From NCBI RefSeq assembly GCF_003334765.1, contig NZ_QOWT01000047.1: DNA of 21,426 bases; one strand, given 5' to 3'. The stretch's first letter is position 1; the number at the start of each line of letters is the position of its first letter. Source of the DNA: Escherichia coli. Its GTDB lineage: Bacteria; Pseudomonadota; Gammaproteobacteria; Enterobacterales; Enterobacteriaceae. A program made the translations under genes and the position numbers. The notes beneath the pieces are model-generated. The model was not told the DNA's origin. It did no database searches and saw only the letters and a list, made by a program, of their open reading frames with translations. This document shows, piece after piece, positions 9,708 through 17,580 of the stretch.

Positions 9708-10553
9708 TTGAACAATTGGTCACCAGAGCATACAAAAGTCATCAAGAGCTGGTTTAAGATTGATACATATCGCAAATTTGAAGACCTCTCATTGATTCAG
9801 TTCTACCATGAGATATGGGCCCGTAAATTGTTCTTTAAGGAGTATCGGGAAGAGTTTGAGAGCAGAGCACTTGCGGGTTACTTCTCAAAAATTTTTAGTG
9901 GCAATCCTTTTTTAATTGAAGAAGGACAACTGGGATACATGACTCCTGCCAACAAACTTTTTCAACCTCCCCATTTCTTTCTCACAACTCTTGATCGCCT
10001 TGCTGAAACGAGCATTATTGCAATGCAACGTGGAGGTTTTCTTTGGCATGAAGGTGATAATTATTCTATAAACGCAGAGCTTCGAGAAGAATCACTTTCA
10101 GACATTATGCCAGATCAGTTTACACGAACGATCATGTTCGAGATTGATCTGGCAAGTGGCACAGACGAAGAGATTGCAGAGTCGCTTAAAGCTGCATTAC
10201 CGCAGTGGCGTAAAGTTAAGGGTATTGATGAAAACCCATTGGAATCTGTTCGTTTTGGATACGGAACTATCAAGAAACTCATCAGTTATCGTGTAATACC
10301 TATGCTTGATATCCTGGTGTGGGCAGCCGTTAAAAAAATCCGTGTCTCTGACGACAGGTTATCCAGACTACTATATACAGACGATGACGAAGAAAGCGAA
10401 ATGAGACAGTCCAGCCAAATCAAAGATACCGACAGGCCTTTGGCTCTTAAATCCTGCACAACTGACTTTATCCGACAATTCCATTACTTCATGAACAAAA
10501 ACAGCCATTTAAAGCAAATGAAAGTCTCTGATGTAATGAAACTATCGGATTAA
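9708..10553 (+). CDS. Hypothetical island protein (281 aa); possibly inovirus Gp2-like family
   Basis: Long ORF starting at TTG 9708 with GGTGGAG RBS about 8 nt upstream; no in-frame ATG until about codon 78. Positioned immediately upstream of an AlpA-family gene. Family assignment is from recall only. Confidence 0.55.
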   Translation: MNNWSPEHTKVIKSWFKIDTYRKFEDLSLIQFYHEIWARKLFFKEYREEFESRALAGYFSKIFSGNPFLIEEGQLGYMTPANKLFQPPHFFLTTLDRLAETSIIAMQRGGFLWHEGDNYSINAELREESLSDIMPDQFTRTIMFEIDLASGTDEEIAESLKAALPQWRKVKGIDENPLESVRFGYGTIKKLISYRVIPMLDILVWAAVKKIRVSDDRLSRLLYTDDDEESEMRQSSQIKDTDRPLALKSCTTDFIRQFHYFMNKNSHLKQMKVSDVMKLSD

Positions 10554-12427: not shown

Positions 12428-12991
12428 TTAAAATGGAATGCCGTCTGCAGGATTTCGTCTTCTGGAGTTTTTAACTGATTTTGTTTTACTCCAGGCACGA
12501 TAAAAATTAAACGAATTGGCAAAATCTTCTGTCTCCAGTCTGGATTTTCTGAATTTATCCATCAGATCTTCATTGAAACGACGAGGAATTCCCTTAACGC
12601 ACAAGTTTGAATTCAGATATACCTGATTATCTATGGTGTCACGAATAAGTATTTTTTTTCCAAATAACTCTTTGAATGCACGTGAAACATTTGATTTATT
12701 CAGCCCAAGCTCTTTGGCAGTACGTGACTGTGAAAAATCAGGAATAATATTACCGTAATCAATGGCTGAGAAGAGATAAATCACAATTCTAAATGCTGTA
12801 GGCGTCAAATCCATTCTGGCGAGTGTCGCCATATTACCTTTAAATACCATTGAGAAATCGTCCTTGAAGGACGTCTTTTTATAGCTGGTTGCTTTAATTT
12901 TTATTTCTTCTAGATCTTCGGGCATAACCTCTAATGCTTCTGCAATAATGGATTTTTGTTCTTTAGTTAATACAACACTTGTGATTGACAT
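12428..12991 (-). CDS. Winged helix-turn-helix DNA-binding protein (187 aa), RepL-like / plasmid replication-associated candidate
   Basis: AGGAG RBS 5 nt upstream of ATG. Central segment …TPTAFRIVIYLFSAIDYGNIIPDFSQSRTAKELGLNKSNVSRAFKELFGKKILIR… has typical wHTH spacing. A divergent AT-rich region and tandem direct repeats lie 460-600 bp upstream. Family is inferred from motif pattern, not from a search. Confidence 0.6.
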   Translation of the reverse strand: MSITSVVLTKEQKSIIAEALEVMPEDLEEIKIKATSYKKTSFKDDFSMVFKGNMATLARMDLTPTAFRIVIYLFSAIDYGNIIPDFSQSRTAKELGLNKSNVSRAFKELFGKKILIRDTIDNQVYLNSNLCVKGIPRRFNEDLMDKFRKSRLETEDFANSFNFYRAWSKTKSVKNSRRRNPADGIPF

Positions 12992-13452
12992 AATGGCTCC
13001 TTTTTTATTGTTGTGATTACAGATATGGCATATTTAATTTATTTGTCAATGGTTTTGATGATATTATTTTAATTATATCTTATTTGAATTTTTTATCCGT
13101 TCTTTGGTGGTGGTAATAGGTTGTAAAATTTGAAACGAGGGGTGCTAAATTTAACCATCACCTGTTATGTGATTGATAATTTTTGGTGCTGAAATTAACA
13201 ACGGCATATTTTGTATAATCATATGATTTTATTAGATAATTTTTGATTTTGATCTGCAAGATAAAAGAGTGATAAAGAAATAAGAAACCACAGTTTTGCA
13301 TTTGATCGATACTCAAGGCCTTGGTGTACCTGATGAAAACATTTTTATTATTGCTTTTCTTAAATAATATCATTTGTAAATTGAAGCCTGCGCAACTGTG
13401 TGTTACGCCCCATTGGGCTTCAGAACATCACTATAGTGTTTTCAGTCAGTAT

Positions 13453-13600
13453 AAATACGCTTCGCGCACGAGTTCACAGTATTTAGGTTTACTGTCATTA
13501 AAAATACGCTTCGTGCAGAAGTTCAGAAAAATGGGGTTAGCTGTCAGCACAAATACGCTTCGCGCAAAAAAAAATCAGGAGGCTAAGTTGATCGAGAAAG
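13453..13600. repeat. Three direct repeats at exactly 49-bp spacing sharing a 16-bp core AAATACGCTTCG(C/T)GCA (iteron-like)
   Basis: Cores at 13453-13468, 13502-13517 and 13551-13566. Units 1 and 2 also share AGTTCA and CTGTCA blocks further along the 49-bp unit; unit 3 keeps only the core. Non-coding context. Confidence 0.7.
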
Positions 13601-14030
13601 CGAACACAGATACATGATTTACCCGTTTGCTGACTACGGCTCACGCCGGGACCCTTCGGAAAAACCCTTTCTGCTTCAGCGAGTGAGTGCTGCGGGCACT
13701 CAGAGGCGCTGCCAGGGAGACAAAATTAAGTTTTTCAACTGTTTGGTAAAAATAATTAACATTTATAGGTAGTCGGGGCGTAAGCCAGTGCGTAGCACGC
13801 TCTCAAAAAATATTCCTGTGGGTTTCTTATCTGCAATAGGGAAATAACTCAGATAATTGATATATGAAAAAACAATACAATCGGGAAGACACAACTTTAG
13901 CACAGTAAAAGCTATTTGTATTTATGAGGAATAAAATATATATGAATAATAAAATATTTTTATTTTGCTATTGATTTTAATTTTTAAGATGATAGTACTT
14001 AATTATAAAAACAAAATAATGGAGGAAATT

Positions 14031-14456
14031 ATGAGTGCTATTAATGTGTTATCTCAGGAGGAAAAATTTATACATGTTGTTGATAAATTTATAACCCATA
14101 ATCACAACGGCGTTAATAACAATGTCTTTTATAAAAAACTTTATGTTCTCTTCGCCGGATATCATCTGAAGTATTTTTATTCACGGGCGCAATATCGCAA
14201 TTCGTGTTATCACGTTGATAATATCATGCAGATGTTTATGGGTGTCGTTTCTACCCTGAAGACCCCTCTGCTCAGGCAACTCGCAAACAGTGACACATTG
14301 CTGCATTGCCTGAATTCGCTCGTGAATTATATTTCAGGCAATCTGGATGAAGCAGAGCACATTTATGCTGATTTACTGGCACAGTATGAAAAGAAACGCA
14401 TTGCACGTTCTCTGGCTTATACACCACCAGGATCCGTGGTCAGGAAAAGACTGTGA
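14031..14456 (+). CDS. Hypothetical protein (141 aa from ATG 14031; ORF track begins at 13965)
   Basis: GGAGG RBS 8 nt before ATG 14031 (MSAINVLSQ…). C-terminal tail …EKKRIARSLAYTPPGSVVRKRL resembles the tail of the ankyrin protein at 17683-18636. Confidence 0.5.
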   Translation: MSAINVLSQEEKFIHVVDKFITHNHNGVNNNVFYKKLYVLFAGYHLKYFYSRAQYRNSCYHVDNIMQMFMGVVSTLKTPLLRQLANSDTLLHCLNSLVNYISGNLDEAEHIYADLLAQYEKKRIARSLAYTPPGSVVRKRL

Positions 14457-14944: not shown

Positions 14945-15343
14945 TTATTGAAAAAGGCCGGTTTTCATCTTGCTGTTGTTTTCAGAGAACGTCCACTTGC
15001 TGACGGTTTCGCCTTTAAATTCGATTTCCAGCGTTTTGGCCTGCGTCTGTGAACCCCCGGTCAGCAGTCCAATCACGGGAATGAATGTGGTGGCATCAAA
15101 CTGATTGTTGTCCATCGAATAAGTCCATTGTTCATTGCCACTATCAAGTGTAGTTTTGGTTTCGGGCTGACCGAATGCGGTAATGATTTCTGATTTCGTT
15201 GTTTTATTTTTGATGATTTTCGACTGCAGACTTTGTGATGTTTCTTTTTTTAGATGCTGGTTGCCTGATGTTGAACAGCCAGAAATAAGTAAAGAAGAAA
15301 TAAAAAACACAGAAATCATGAATCTGTTCATAAGTTTTCTCAT
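14945..15343 (-). CDS. Lipoprotein (132 aa) with BamE/SmpA-OmlA-like motif
   Basis: Lipobox LISG|C. Segment …EIITAFGQPETKTTLDSGNEQWTYSMD… resembles the BamE-type LGxP…W.Y motif. Possible alternative start at M5 (15331). Confidence 0.65.
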   Translation of the reverse strand: MRKLMNRFMISVFFISSLLISGCSTSGNQHLKKETSQSLQSKIIKNKTTKSEIITAFGQPETKTTLDSGNEQWTYSMDNNQFDATTFIPVIGLLTGGSQTQAKTLEIEFKGETVSKWTFSENNSKMKTGLFQ

Positions 15344-15841: not shown

Positions 15842-17077
15842 TTATGGTGCAGGATGGTTGTTGTTTTTAAATGATTGTTCTTTATTGGTATTTGTTGTCA
15901 TGGGATGACAGGGTGTCAGAATATGTAGGTGGAGGATTTGGTGGAAAGGATGTGCAGTGGCATGTAACAGAGACATGCCTCTGCGCCTGAGAAGTGCCAC
16001 AATATGGACGAGCAATACAAGCCATGAATACAGACGACGCTGGCGGGGTATCTGACGAGCTGTATTGTGCAGATTGCTCCTGAGCTGGATGATACCCACT
16101 GTCTCCTGTTGTCTTTCCAGACGAATTTTTTCTTCAAGCTGATGGATTTTCTCCAGAATCGTTTCCCGGTTTGCAGCCTGCTCTTCAGACTCGCATGATG
16201 GCACTGGCACTGGCACTGGCACTGGCACTGGCACTGGCACTGGCGCGGTTGTAGGTTCTATTGGCCTCTGGGCTTCTTTCAGTAAACTCAGATGCTCAGG
16301 CGTAAAATCAATCAGTGCTTGCAGGGAAGACCAGCCATATTTTTTACCCAACTGAGATGCTTTAAAGGCAATACCCTGGTATTGAAATGAAAATCCACTC
16401 ATTTTACCCGTAGTGGCGATATTGGGTTTGCAGGTCACTCCTTCCTGTTCCAGTAAGCGAACAAAGGTTAGTAAATCGGGATGGTGTGTTAATGCATTGT
16501 CGAGCAGGGCCTGCAACAGTGACTTAGGGCAGGGAGCTGCTGTGCGTTCTGCCATCATCAGTTCATTACGGGAAGGCTTCCTTTTATCCTGGCGGCTACT
16601 GCCGGTTACACCCGTAGTTTCGGTGAGGCCGTGTACTCTCTCCAGCTCACTGATAATCCGTGTGCCGATAAGATTTTCATTTTTCCCCAGGTACAGTTTT
16701 CCACCGACCATGTTAATACGACTTGCAATGATATGAATATGCTGCCCATCCGGATCATCGTGCATGATATAGCAGCGAAGATGGGTGTCAGTGAAGCCCA
16801 TTCGGGCCATATAATCGTCAGCGAATGCTGCCCACTGTCTGTTTGACAGTTTCTCACCCTTTGGCAGGCGAAGTGAATTATGCCAGACAGGTTTGGCGAC
16901 ATCGGGACGCAGCAGTCGGGTGCCTTCAAATTCACTTATAAGCTCAGCAGCAGTGCTACCCGTCATGTTGCCACCGATGACATAAGGCGTGATTTTGTGG
17001 TGAGAACCTGACTTCAGGCTATAAATAACCACACCTGTGAATTGTTTACCCCTTTTTATTTTCTGCATGCCTTTCAT
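15842..17077 (-). CDS. Plasmid mobilization relaxase (MobA/VirD2-like relaxase domain), 411 aa
   Basis: N-terminal candidate catalytic Tyr (…VVIYSLK…) and histidine-triad motif HDDPDGQHIHIIASRIN (HxDxDxxHxHxxxxxxN). Start ATG overlaps the mobC stop (ATGA). Central (PV)7 linker. C-terminal about 80 aa is unusual in composition and the gene may be 3'-degenerate. Confidence 0.8.
   Translation of the reverse strand: MKGMQKIKRGKQFTGVVIYSLKSGSHHKITPYVIGGNMTGSTAAELISEFEGTRLLRPDVAKPVWHNSLRLPKGEKLSNRQWAAFADDYMARMGFTDTHLRCYIMHDDPDGQHIHIIASRINMVGGKLYLGKNENLIGTRIISELERVHGLTETTGVTGSSRQDKRKPSRNELMMAERTAAPCPKSLLQALLDNALTHHPDLLTFVRLLEQEGVTCKPNIATTGKMSGFSFQYQGIAFKASQLGKKYGWSSLQALIDFTPEHLSLLKEAQRPIEPTTAPVPVPVPVPVPVPVPSCESEEQAANRETILEKIHQLEEKIRLERQQETVGIIQLRSNLHNTARQIPRQRRLYSWLVLLVHIVALLRRRGMSLLHATAHPFHQILHLHILTPCHPMTTNTNKEQSFKNNNHPAP
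16201..16242. repeat. Perfect hexanucleotide simple-sequence repeat (GCACTG)x7, in-frame in the relaxase gene (encodes PVPVPVPVPVPVPV)
   Basis: Seven perfect tandem copies read directly from the sequence. Confidence 0.9.
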
Positions 17078-17481
17078 GGGTCTGACTCCAGAAATGTTGA
17101 GGGAATAAGGTGATCCCTGAGAGTTTTGATTTGTCTGCGCAGGGCGAAGAGTTCTGTACGGGTCAGTTCGCTGTCAGGGCTTTTGCTGTCGAGATGACTC
17201 AACAGGTAGTTTAAATCCTGTGAAAGGCTGCCAAGTTTTATCCATGCTTCACGATTGATTTCTGGCAGAACCGGCGGGAGTTTATTCAGGGAAGCCATCC
17301 TGAGCCATTCTCCTTTTTTATACTGACCTCTTTTACTGTCGAGAATAATTAATTCTTCTTCATTTAATCTGACACTGATGCAGTGATGTCGTATTTCATT
17401 CTCAGGAAATTTGTCAGTATGGAATTTACCGCGTTTTGATACTCTGGTTATATCATCATCATTACTCATGTCACTGTTCAT
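17074..17481 (-). CDS. MobC-family mobilization/relaxosome accessory protein (135 aa)
   Basis: Segment …WIKLGSLSQDLNYLLSHLDSK… fits the MobC (L.kiGnNlNQiar) motif. Sits immediately upstream of and translationally coupled to the relaxase. AGGAT RBS. Confidence 0.7.
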   Translation of the reverse strand: MNSDMSNDDDITRVSKRGKFHTDKFPENEIRHHCISVRLNEEELIILDSKRGQYKKGEWLRMASLNKLPPVLPEINREAWIKLGSLSQDLNYLLSHLDSKSPDSELTRTELFALRRQIKTLRDHLIPSTFLESDP

Positions 17482-17580
17482 AGTTATCCTTTTATTTCAT
17501 GTTTATTACTACAGATAACCGATGAAATGAATAAGTCAAGTTGTTACGGGATAAATAATTTAATTATCTGGATTAAAAAA

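Follow-up and report, generated by a model that had tools for sequence, protein, structure and literature searches.

A candidate pHW126-like replication module beside a 49-bp repeat array in a mobilizable island of the Escherichia coli chromosome

A chromosomal island with its own rep gene and relaxase

The window analysed here, a stretch of 21,426 nucleotides of Escherichia coli DNA with an overall GC content of ~40%, is a chromosomal island of the ileY-ypjA ... ssrA region with a relaxase gene aboard. Its sole Rfam match at the gathering threshold is a tRNA-Ile (1569-1641), and at that threshold the intergenic region beside rep has none. Among complete E. coli genomes the locus was chromosomal in all 149 of 149 places, and PLSDB gave no nucleotide match. 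Because this chromosomal island carries a relaxase, we regard it as an integrative mobilizable element, in agreement with an earlier reading made from the letters alone (the sequence-only reading), which had suggested an integrated or decayed mobilizable plasmid; an AlpA-type RDF is a further feature of this kind, and no T4SS genes were seen in the island. The order int-DUF6387-AlpA-...-rep-1 kb of non-coding DNA-...-relaxase-MobC is found repeatedly, in elements of E. coli, Salmonella and Yersinia. Citrobacter and Superficieibacter also have the core of rep and non-coding DNA, and a scan of genome contigs with alignment A4 returned 10 loci. Relatives L003, L005 and L018 have an adjacent integrase, and the mutS-linked element of strain 97.3 is an example of an intact relative with one; in this window none stands beside DUF6387, whose neighbour is ypjA, so this copy may not excise and its replicon may be idle or decaying. 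Neither trbJ nor trbL was annotated or detected in the module. Anti-phage defence cargo is frequent in relatives of the island. The features of the module are as follows.

12428-12991, minus strand: rep, encoding a 187-aa homolog of single winged-helix initiators (ORF, BLASTP, AF2 model, Pfam matches of relatives)
12992-13060, minus strand: ribosome-binding site and promoter region of rep, with TTGACA at 13044-13049; conserved in all relatives (9 diverse loci)
13141-13202, minus strand: candidate Rep-binding sites in 22-bp phase, at the position of the plasmid iterons IT1-4; conserved across relatives
13255-13289, minus strand: polypurine/polypyrimidine block, candidate CR, reading GGTTTCTTATTTCTTTATCACTCTTTTATCTTGCA on the minus strand; nearly invariant in 9 diverse loci
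13383-13421, strand not assigned: nested hairpin GAAGCC-T-GCGCAAC-loop-GTTrCGC-...-GGCTTC, at the position of the ssi-like palindrome of the plasmids
13438-13566, plus strand: 49-bp tandem array of 2.6 units, candidate accessory cis site (TRF, 16-mer search)
13636-13712, strand not assigned: conserved GC-rich block in which the hairpin stems are invariant; a candidate cis site, perhaps oriT
13775-13821, strand not assigned: block GGGGCGTAAGCCAGTGCGTAGCACGCTCTCAAAAAATATTCCTGTGG with nic-like words, recognized by its conservation
15842-17481, minus strand: relaxase and an overlapping upstream 135-aa gene in the MobC position (PF03432, HxDxxxxHxH motif)

Two further ORFs, 13321-13617 on the plus strand and 13158-13373 on the minus strand, were rejected as genes because they are unannotated in RefSeq and the 49-bp indels among relatives would shift their frames.

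The 187-aa protein is homologous to initiators of small plasmids

The rep ORF faces the 49-bp repeats and encodes a protein whose AF2 model (mean pLDDT 88) contains a single wHTH, so the divergent winged-helix gene of the sequence-only reading is borne out. By BLASTP, the protein aligns with RepM of pIGMS31 (40% identity over 131 aa, E 1e-30) and with Rep of pHW126 (30% identity over 120 aa, E 6e-15), and tblastn recovered homologs of 45-48% identity on circular Enterobacteriaceae plasmids of 2.67-2.81 kb. Searches with the Rfam RNAI/RNAII models found no match in the small plasmids L013 and L014, which are therefore not of the ColE1 type. RepM and Rep of pHW126 are experimentally proven initiators and distant RepL relatives. 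Origin function depends on RepM and RepR in trans, both of which bind IT/IR/CR and regulate their own genes, and DNA relaxation has been reported for RepM and for pHW126 Rep.

Domain searches say less. Pfam matches to the 187-aa protein are weak (HTH_36, E 0.0019; Phage_rep_O, E 0.024; Rep3_N, E 0.12) and include no RepL (PF05732), HUH or Rep_trans domain; NCBIfam and PHROGs returned nothing for it. A sequence-profile search of the PDB gave generic MarR-type wHTH matches only, and structural matches do not tell initiators from MarR/GntR regulators. RepL is matched by 33 of the 55 phmmer relatives (E<=0.001; best E 8.4e-12), and the RepL-like label given earlier can be kept in this form, since membership of the 187-aa protein itself would be transitive only, through its relatives. 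Taken at the level of sequence, the homology supports a pHW126-like, RepL-superfamily replication-initiator homolog. That the protein is instead an ordinary MarR-like island transcription factor, with promoters alone behind the upstream conservation and no origin present, is very improbable: its homology to proven initiators is significant and specific, its homolog on plasmid L013 (2675 bp) is the only ORF there longer than 116 aa, and the upstream architecture is common to the island and the small plasmids. The recognition helix of Rep, SNVSRAFKELF, is unchanged in relatives, including those that lack the 16-mer described below, and the C-terminus (...ADGIPF) resembles an SSB tip.

The DNA upstream of rep resembles the origin layout of the plasmid family

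Beside the repeats lies the AT-rich tract that had been described there, with a GC content of 27.8% over 13001-13400 against the ~40% of the window. Judging from position and motif conservation, the order away from rep would be promoter, a set of degenerate sites (three or four, in 22-bp phase), the TTTCTTAT block and the hairpin. Every plasmid relative has TTGACA or TTGACT a short way upstream of rep.

In pHW126-like plasmids, four ~20-bp direct repeats lie between rep and the CR (~20 bp, common to all members). The iterons of the plasmid relatives read GTTATGn6-8CATAAC, four times at -215 to -125 from the ATG, and four repeats of 22-bp period were seen in L013, L014, L031, L033, L034, L035 and pHW126; three near-identical copies were visible in pIGMS31, for which the published report gives IT1-4. 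Four near-identical ~20-bp repeats were not found in the island, which has one palindrome-like site, GTTATGTGATTGATAAT (13164-13180), and two degenerate copies, GGTGCTAAATTTAACCAT (13141-13158) and GGTGCTGAAATTAACAAC (13185-13202), with the island site at -189. Taken by itself, the palindrome-like site does not rise above chance (101 of 500 shuffles); the two degenerate copies (GGTGCTrAAwTTAAC) form a direct repeat with an offset of 44.

Further upstream, the TTTCTTAT block occurs at the same distance and in the same orientation in the island, L013, L014, L031, L034, L035 and pIGMS31 (-300 to -255 in the plasmids), and our own alignment of motif and distance makes the island block a candidate equivalent of the CR. 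The hairpin at 13383-13421 (ssDNA fold of -9.5 kcal/mol, z -2.5) is conserved out to Yersinia and has no sequence similarity to the conserved GC-rich palindrome of the plasmids; the ssi-like palindrome beyond the CR in pHW126-like plasmids is dispensable and prevents multimers. The layout shared by the island and eight plasmids consists of the block at about -300 to -255, iterons or iteron-like sites at -215 to -125 and a palindrome further out. In a comparison of 9 diverse relatives, the corresponding island blocks rank with the most conserved non-coding DNA.

The 49-bp array carries one strongly conserved 16-bp site

The three direct repeats reported by the sequence-only reading, with a 16-bp core written AAATACGCTTCG(C/T)GCA at a spacing of exactly 49 bp, are real: the 16-mer AAATACGCTTCGYGCA occurs exactly at 13453-13468, 13502-13517 and 13551-13566 on the plus strand, three such matches were found in 0 of 100 shuffles, and with up to three mismatches no further match turned up in the 21.4 kb. 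TRF gave a 49-bp period over 13438-13566 (2.6 copies, 76% matches, score 139), and a second repeat search returned the same register. Across 29 distinct units, conservation is 98.7% in the core and 67% elsewhere in the unit, which marks the 16 bp as a real recognition site; CTGTCA, a second and less strongly conserved block, is found on the 5' side of the core, and the unit is longer than 16 bp. The mini-hairpin GCGAAGC (core, minus strand) was discarded as a candidate, being present in two of the three copies only and six times in the window against ~2.6 expected, and as ssDNA the array folds no more stably than shuffled sequence does (z 0.05 to 0.56). Positionally, the array starts ~17 bp past the hairpin, 460-575 bp from the rep ATG, and lies outside the segment that matches the mapped minimal origin of pIGMS31 and pIGRK. 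Among relatives, the 16-mer is present in 3, 2, 1 or 0 copies.

A classical iteron origin, in which Rep bound to three 16-mers spaced by 49 bp melts the AT-rich tract for theta replication, is what the earlier claim amounts to, and several observations agree with it: three regular direct repeats adjoin both a tract of 28% GC and a gene of the rep family, purifying selection on the core is strong, Salmonella elements whose Rep is 71% identical retain the repeats, the iterons of the plasmid relatives also lie upstream of rep, and RepM of pIGMS31 seems to recognize sequences of more than one kind. Nevertheless, we consider this reading unlikely. The core is unlike the family iterons, which have a 22-bp period and lie close to rep, whereas the array is found beyond the ssi-position hairpin; at ~4.7 helical turns, the 49-bp period puts neighbouring sites out of phase on the helix; and no DnaA box (TTWTNCACA) was found in 12992-14030. 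The sequence-only reading had further counted on the repeats recurring in homologous elements, and for part of the family they do not, since the 16-mer falls to one copy in Superficieibacter and to none in the Yersinia and S. diarizonae elements with the recognition helix of Rep unchanged. Of the candidate origin proposed earlier, then, the rep family and the AT-rich DNA with the family's origin layout stand, and the part that does not is the 49-bp repeats as initiator-binding iterons; they are probably an accessory binding site rather than essential iterons.

Operators or an enhancer for an island regulator (AlpA, the 141-aa protein, Rep or a helper-plasmid factor), acting on rep or on the rightward operon from 14031, would be another role for the repeats, named by the sequence-only reading as its alternative, and one that we likewise hold to be improbable. 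In its favour, protein-binding sites typically combine a 16-bp core of such high conservation with a spacer that varies, the genes on either side of the 1-kb region with the array are divergent, Rep proteins of the pHW126 family control several promoters, and helper factors are described as triggering island replication and excision in PIME and SGI1. However, promoter-like sites beside the array do not exceed chance (a promoter/terminator scan of 12900-14100 stayed at shuffle level), the array is at least 460 bp from either start codon, and a search for genes co-varying with presence of the 16-mer gave no clean correlate, the island's DNA-binding genes included, and identified no binder. Pfam was uninformative on the 141-aa, 91-aa and 135-aa proteins.

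Mobilization genes and candidate transfer origins

The mobC-relaxase pair noted earlier is indeed nearby, with the relaxase at 15842-17077 and the MobC-position gene at 17074-17481, 2.3-3.9 kb from the repeats. The HEN motif is characteristic of ColE1 MbeA; the relaxase here has HxDxxxxHxH rather than HEN. OriV and oriT are often adjacent in small mobilizable plasmids, and on this general ground the repeats could belong to a transfer origin, as sites for a relaxosome accessory protein such as the 135-aa MobC-position protein, with 13636-13821 as the oriT/nic region. Invariant hairpin stems (CGGC/GCCG and CAGCG..GAGTGCC-loop-GGCACTC..CGCTG in 13636-13712) and conserved blocks do lie 70-250 bp from the array, the nic-like words ACTGGCTTA (minus strand) and TTCCTG (plus strand) fall within a conserved block, and the island encodes a PF03432 relaxase. 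We nonetheless find this explanation quite unlikely. The ColE1-like word ACTGGCTTA, a 9-mer, was rejected as a nic site, arising by chance in 12 of 100 shuffles; block 13775-13821 has no significant similarity to the oriT regions of the nearest plasmid relaxases; and regions upstream of mobC in the plasmids with the closest relaxases (43% identity) match at chance level only. The words TACGCTTCGC and GGCYTACGCCCC, set against the mobC-upstream regions of the IncQ2-like plasmids L037 and L038 and of L039 and L040, looked suggestive but were at chance level versus shuffles, and were dropped. A blastn search of 13380-13840 against PLSDB in distant mode came back empty, so neither the repeats nor the GC-rich blocks have a helper-plasmid look-alike there. 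Moreover, the usual oriT position upstream of mobC (17482-17682) carries an inverted repeat of its own, and the relaxase and conserved blocks are still present in elements without the 16-mer.

A probable replication module with a candidate accessory repeat array

We posit that 12428 to ~13421 is likely a pHW126-like (RepL-superfamily) replication module in a chromosomally integrated mobilizable island, to which the 49-bp repeats are accessory. This reading draws on protein homology, the shared layout and the conservation of the repeats, from which we infer binding, nicking and replication. By analogy with RepM, RepR and Rep of pHW126, the 187-aa protein would be an initiator of the dimer-type winged-helix kind that binds the repeated sites just upstream of its own promoter, represses its own gene, and opens or nicks the adjacent origin, upon which the excised circular island would be copied. 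The 49-bp repeats would stem from a single 16-bp recognition site that was amplified in tandem and is present in 1-3 copies in relatives; this clade-specific site may form a second class of Rep site or serve another protein encoded by the island or a helper; as such, the array could modulate replication, copy number or incompatibility, or couple replication to transfer. At the level of sequence, the evidence supports an integrated mobilizable element with a replication origin. Weak Pfam matches, the degenerate iteron-like sites and the chance-level palindrome count against the preferred reading.

A more elaborate version, distinctly doubtful as a whole, is that enterobacterial mobilizable islands domesticated a pHW126-like rolling-circle/theta hybrid replicon, whose initiator gained a disordered tail mimicking the SSB tip (...D-G/D-I-P-F-COOH) and in which the 16-bp site took over control from decayed iterons. 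Under domestication, the tail could bring SSB-client proteins (PriA, primase, the chi subunit) straight to the origin, and with four perfect iterons decayed, the 16-bp site in its 49-bp unit would control handcuffing, incompatibility or the coupling of replication to transfer.

The pHW126-like replicons are understudied and have so far been described only on tiny cryptic plasmids; here the same module would be conserved in mobilizable islands on the chromosomes of E. coli, Salmonella, Citrobacter and Yersinia. If the replication-module reading is true, excised copies of these islands probably replicate in the manner of SGI1 and PIMEs, and the origin could be dissected through natural variation, since relatives differ in having 0-3 of the 16-bp sites and have degenerate iterons. 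The tail that resembles the SSB tip would give experimental access to the way in which minimal initiators recruit the host replisome, and the annotation labels 'MarR family' and 'hypothetical protein' would become 'replication initiator, pHW126/RepL-like'.

Comparison with known systems

The pHW126-like plasmids, namely pHW126 (Rahnella) and pIGRK and pIGMS31 (Klebsiella pneumoniae), share with the island a homologous single-wHTH Rep, a strong promoter, repeated sites ~130-220 bp and a TTTCTTAT-type block ~260-300 bp upstream with a palindrome further out, low GC and an associated mobilization module. Unlike these plasmids of 2.3-2.9 kb, the module here is chromosomal, in an island of ~10 kb or more; its sites in 22-bp phase are degenerate rather than four near-perfect 20-bp iterons, its hairpin has no sequence similarity to ssi, its Rep has an extra C-terminal extension ending in D(G/D)IPF, its relaxase is of the MobA/VirD2 (PF03432) and not the MOBV type, and it adds the 49-bp array of a 16-bp site. 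In pHW126-like plasmids both rolling-circle and theta intermediates have been seen, the mechanism is disputed, and Rep has relaxase activity without a HUH motif. With the RepL/pSN2 family (PF05732), which is found on Firmicutes plasmids whose origins and mechanism are poorly defined, the island has in common a small wHTH initiator homolog without HUH or Rep_trans motifs, but the 187-aa protein is not significant against PF05732.

Iteron theta plasmids (R6K, pSC101, RK2, P1) resemble the island in their direct repeats, AT-rich tract and autoregulated rep gene, and in some of them extra repeat clusters outside the minimal origin act in copy control. The island differs in having no two-domain WH1-WH2 Rep_3 protein (Rep3_N being the marginal match given above), a period of 49 rather than ~22 bp, no DnaA box, and 0-3 copies among relatives. 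In the sopC centromere of the F plasmid a 43-bp unit is repeated in tandem, and every unit contains a protein-binding core of 16 bp; purely by analogy, the array is similar in its long tandem unit and short, highly conserved core. IMEs can exploit the partition systems of helpers, and SGI1 is reported to hijack the parABS system of IncC plasmids; unlike sopC, the core is non-palindromic, has no similarity to known parS/sopC sites and is present in 1-3 copies only, and the conserved module has no partition gene.

Among chromosomal islands there is precedent for an own rep gene with an iteron oriV: SGI1 is described as having an IncC-dependent rep/oriV, and PIME1, in a preprint, as having repA and an oriV of four iterons. 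In both, transfer and stability are said to benefit when the excised form replicates. The present island is like them in its chromosomal location, int/alpA, own rep and candidate origin, and mobilization functions, and unlike them in its Rep family. It also departs from PIMEs (search criteria int, alpA, replicase, and trbJ with trbL) in lacking trbJ and trbL, and from subfamily PIME1 in lacking the marker luxR regulator. EARL islands are described, in the sections of that work drawn on here, with a MOBQ relaxase, TraD and pilus genes, and the conserved ORFs named there include no pHW126-like rep; with EARL/ROD21-like islands such as ICEKp258.2, as described in those sections, our island shares an end formed by integrase, AlpA-type RDF and DUF6387, together with a relaxase.

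A probable plasmid-type replication gene in a chromosomal island

Taken alone as a query, the 187-aa protein encoded at 12428-12991 on the minus strand, pointing away from the repeats as the sequence-only reading had it, gave weak Pfam scores (HTH_36 0.0019, Phage_rep_O 0.024, Rep3_N 0.12). A large protein search returned many ~199-aa homologs with 45-48% identity, their longest contigs mostly 2.6-2.9 kb, and tblastn against PLSDB placed homologs on circular 2.67-2.81 kb plasmids of Klebsiella, Enterobacter, E. coli and Serratia, with pIGMS31 and pHW126 among the matches and RepL annotations on the more distant ones. Pairwise BLASTP gave 40% identity to RepM (E 1e-30) and 30% to pHW126 Rep (E 6e-15). 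Apart from its rep homolog, the 2675-bp plasmid L013 has no ORF >116 aa, while the two annotated genes of the 2811-bp plasmid L014 are the rep homolog and a plasmid recombination (Mob_Pre-type) gene; no ColE1-type RNA was found in either.

In 73 complete E. coli genomes the 2-kb region recurs at 99-100% identity. Related sequence occurs in 146 of 5426 such genomes, at 149 places that are all chromosomal; a nucleotide search of PLSDB gave no match. Strain H3 has the locus between tRNA-Ile/ypjA and ssrA. A recurring module emerges from diverged copies (DNA 78-92% identical) and is also found in Salmonella (Rep 71% identical) and Yersinia (Rep 61%, integrase adjacent).

Gene order of the module
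First half: [integrase] - DUF6387 - AlpA - small ORFs - 187-aa gene - ~1 kb non-coding
Second half: 141-aa gene - two lipoprotein genes - 90-aa gene - relaxase - MobC-position gene - ankyrin - cargo

Since the relaxase (Pfam PF03432, HxDxxxxHxH motif) travels with a recurring chromosomal module, the island is an integrative mobilizable element. The earlier suggestion of an integrated or decayed mobilizable plasmid is supported in part: the relaxase-bearing element is chromosomal and its rep family is that of small plasmids. Anti-phage systems are found in the cargo end of relatives L002, L003 and L016-L018: Kiwa KwaAB, type I RM, SIR2, reverse transcriptase and BamHI-type RM. In the window, DUF6387 comes straight after the ypjA autotransporter gene (9260-9707, 9708-10553), and the tyrosine integrase that L003, L005 and L018 have at that position is missing; the island copy in the window may not be able to excise itself.

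Several further observations concern the island and its surroundings. Within the relaxase gene, a perfect (TGGCAC)x7.7 microsatellite at 16199-16244 codes for a (Pro-Val)n tract; variation in its length may explain why the annotated relaxase of strain H3 has four more codons. In strain H3 (L001, 23165-24327) an IS3 element adjoins a truncated hypothetical gene where the window (~14945-15343) has an intact 132-aa lipoprotein gene matching phage family phrog_3135; next to it, a 106-aa lipoprotein has a weak match to Cor superinfection-exclusion proteins. PLSDB includes two linear 'plasmid' records of 3.6 kb from a Salmonella draft assembly (OX345049.1, which is L012, and OX345050.1), which carry rep (67%) and relaxase (82%) homologs and look like island fragments labelled plasmids, not autonomous replicons. 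The ypjA adhesin gene contains a CCAAAx-rich 42-bp tandem repeat (8245-8325, 1.9 copies, sub-periods of 6/12/18 bp).

Layout of the probable island origin and of plasmid origins

In pHW126-like plasmids the REP module runs from an ssi-like palindrome (dispensable, although its loss yields multimers) through a conserved region (CR) of ~20 bp, four iteron-like repeats of 20 bp with a 22-bp period, and IR/DR operators to rep; in pIGMS31 the minimal origin is 258 bp (CR + IT1-4 + IR1). Rep, a wHTH protein that lacks HUH and Rep_trans motifs, is autoregulatory and binds IT, IR and CR; DNA relaxation is known for pHW126 Rep and RepM, and both rolling-circle and theta intermediates were observed for pIGMS31. 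In the authors' view the family is distant kin of RepL of pSN2-like plasmids.

We compared the oriented 520 bp upstream of rep in eight plasmids and three island relatives. The plasmids share a GC-rich palindrome at about -390..-300 from the ATG, a polypyrimidine block with TTTCTTAT at about -300..-255, four iterons (mostly GTTATG-N6-8-CATAAC) at -215..-125, and TTGACA/TTGACT near rep. In the island, the previously noted AT-rich tract was borne out (GC 27.8% over 13001-13400).

Features upstream of the island rep gene
13044-13049: TTGACA, -58 from the rep ATG
13141-13158 and 13185-13202: GGTGCTrAAwTTAAC copies flanking ATTATCAATCACATAAC, exactly 22 bp either side
13164-13180: palindrome-like ATTATCAATCACATAAC, -189
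13255-13289: GGTTTCTTATTTCTTTATC... block (candidate CR), -298..-264
13383-13421: hairpin, -430..-392
13438-13566: 49-bp array, -447..-575
13453, 13502, 13551, plus strand: AAATACGCTTCGYGCA

The two GGTGCTrAAwTTAAC copies were also recovered as a direct repeat (offset 44), and the palindrome match of ATTATCAATCACATAAC by itself is at chance level (101/500 shuffles). In a nine-locus footprint, the island blocks matching the plasmid layout are the best conserved non-coding DNA. No DnaA box was found in the intergenic region upstream of rep. We consider it probable that this region and gene constitute a pHW126-like/RepL-superfamily replication module, whose activities we infer. Two mechanical ORFs overlap the origin region (13321-13617, plus strand, 98 aa; 13158-13373, minus strand, 71 aa); they are probably not genes, because both are unannotated in RefSeq and 49-bp indels among relatives break the frame of the 98-aa ORF.

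The 49-bp repeats

The three direct repeats exactly 49 bp apart are real: TRF (period 49 bp, 2.6 copies, score 139) and a separate repeat search gave an identical register, three matches of AAATACGCTTCGYGCA arose in 0/100 shuffles, and the window holds no further copy at <=3 mismatches. Conservation over 29 distinct units is 98.7% at the 16 core positions and 67% at the remaining 33, which makes the core a genuine sequence-specific site that has been amplified in tandem. Its copy number varies among relatives.

Copies of the core
3: window, L001 (strain H3), L004, L005, L015, L024, L025
2: L002, L003, L021-L023
1: L027, L028 (Superficieibacter; TAATACGCTTCGCGCA)
0: L018, L029, L030 (Yersinia and S. 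diarizonae)

The zero-copy elements retain the flanking blocks, and their Rep recognition helix (SNVSRAFKELF) is unchanged; the core is thus not universal in the origin of this Rep family, nor would it be essential there. The array begins ~17 bp past the hairpin, which places it outside the island's equivalent of the minimal plasmid origin, and it scores low in the nine-locus footprint. Folded as ssDNA it does no better than shuffles, and no gene co-varying with the core was found among relatives. The proposal that the repeats are initiator-binding iterons is accordingly not supported by copy number and position, and we regard classical iterons as improbable. Of the repeat-plus-rep arrangement that the sequence-only reading proposed to look for on small plasmids, these supply the rep homologs, and no look-alike of the array was found in PLSDB.

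Candidate oriT sites

Two non-coding, GC-rich blocks hardly vary, even in the Yersinia relatives.

13636-13712: GC-rich block
13775-13821: GC-rich block

They hold invariant hairpin stems (GAGTGCC/GGCACTC inside CAGCG/CGCTG) and nic-like words (ACTGGCTTA, minus strand; TTCCTG, plus strand), and are possibly oriT; their similarity to oriT regions of the nearest relaxase-bearing plasmids is at chance level. Separately, an inverted repeat (GGTATAC-N14-GTATACC) followed by a TTGACT promoter-like site lies upstream of the MobC-position gene (17586-17613, minus strand), the conventional place for an oriT or mob operator.

Comparison with known systems

Through its C-terminal tip, DDDIPF, E. coli SSB recruits PriA, primase and chi, among others. 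The 187-aa protein ends in a similar D(G/D)IPF (...RRRNPADGIPF, window 12428-12460), and D[GDS]IPF or D[GDS]IPF[DN] closes 30 of 36 full-length island-type homologs, whereas most close plasmid homologs end otherwise, mostly in ...DWVDIE. Model confidence is low in the ~25 residues before the DGIPF end, a stretch that is presumably disordered.

PIME1 and SGI1 are known precedents for islands that bring their own rep and an iteron oriV. The present island falls outside the PIME definition because it has neither of the required trbJ/trbL, and it shares its int/AlpA/DUF6387 end with EARL (ROD21-like) islands. The literature searched held no link between pHW126-like replicons and genomic islands; the finding here is a probable pHW126-like/RepL-superfamily replication module inside an integrative mobilizable element. 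It differs in that its iterons have apparently decayed, a 16-bp site has been added in a 49-bp array, and its Rep has a tail like the SSB tip.
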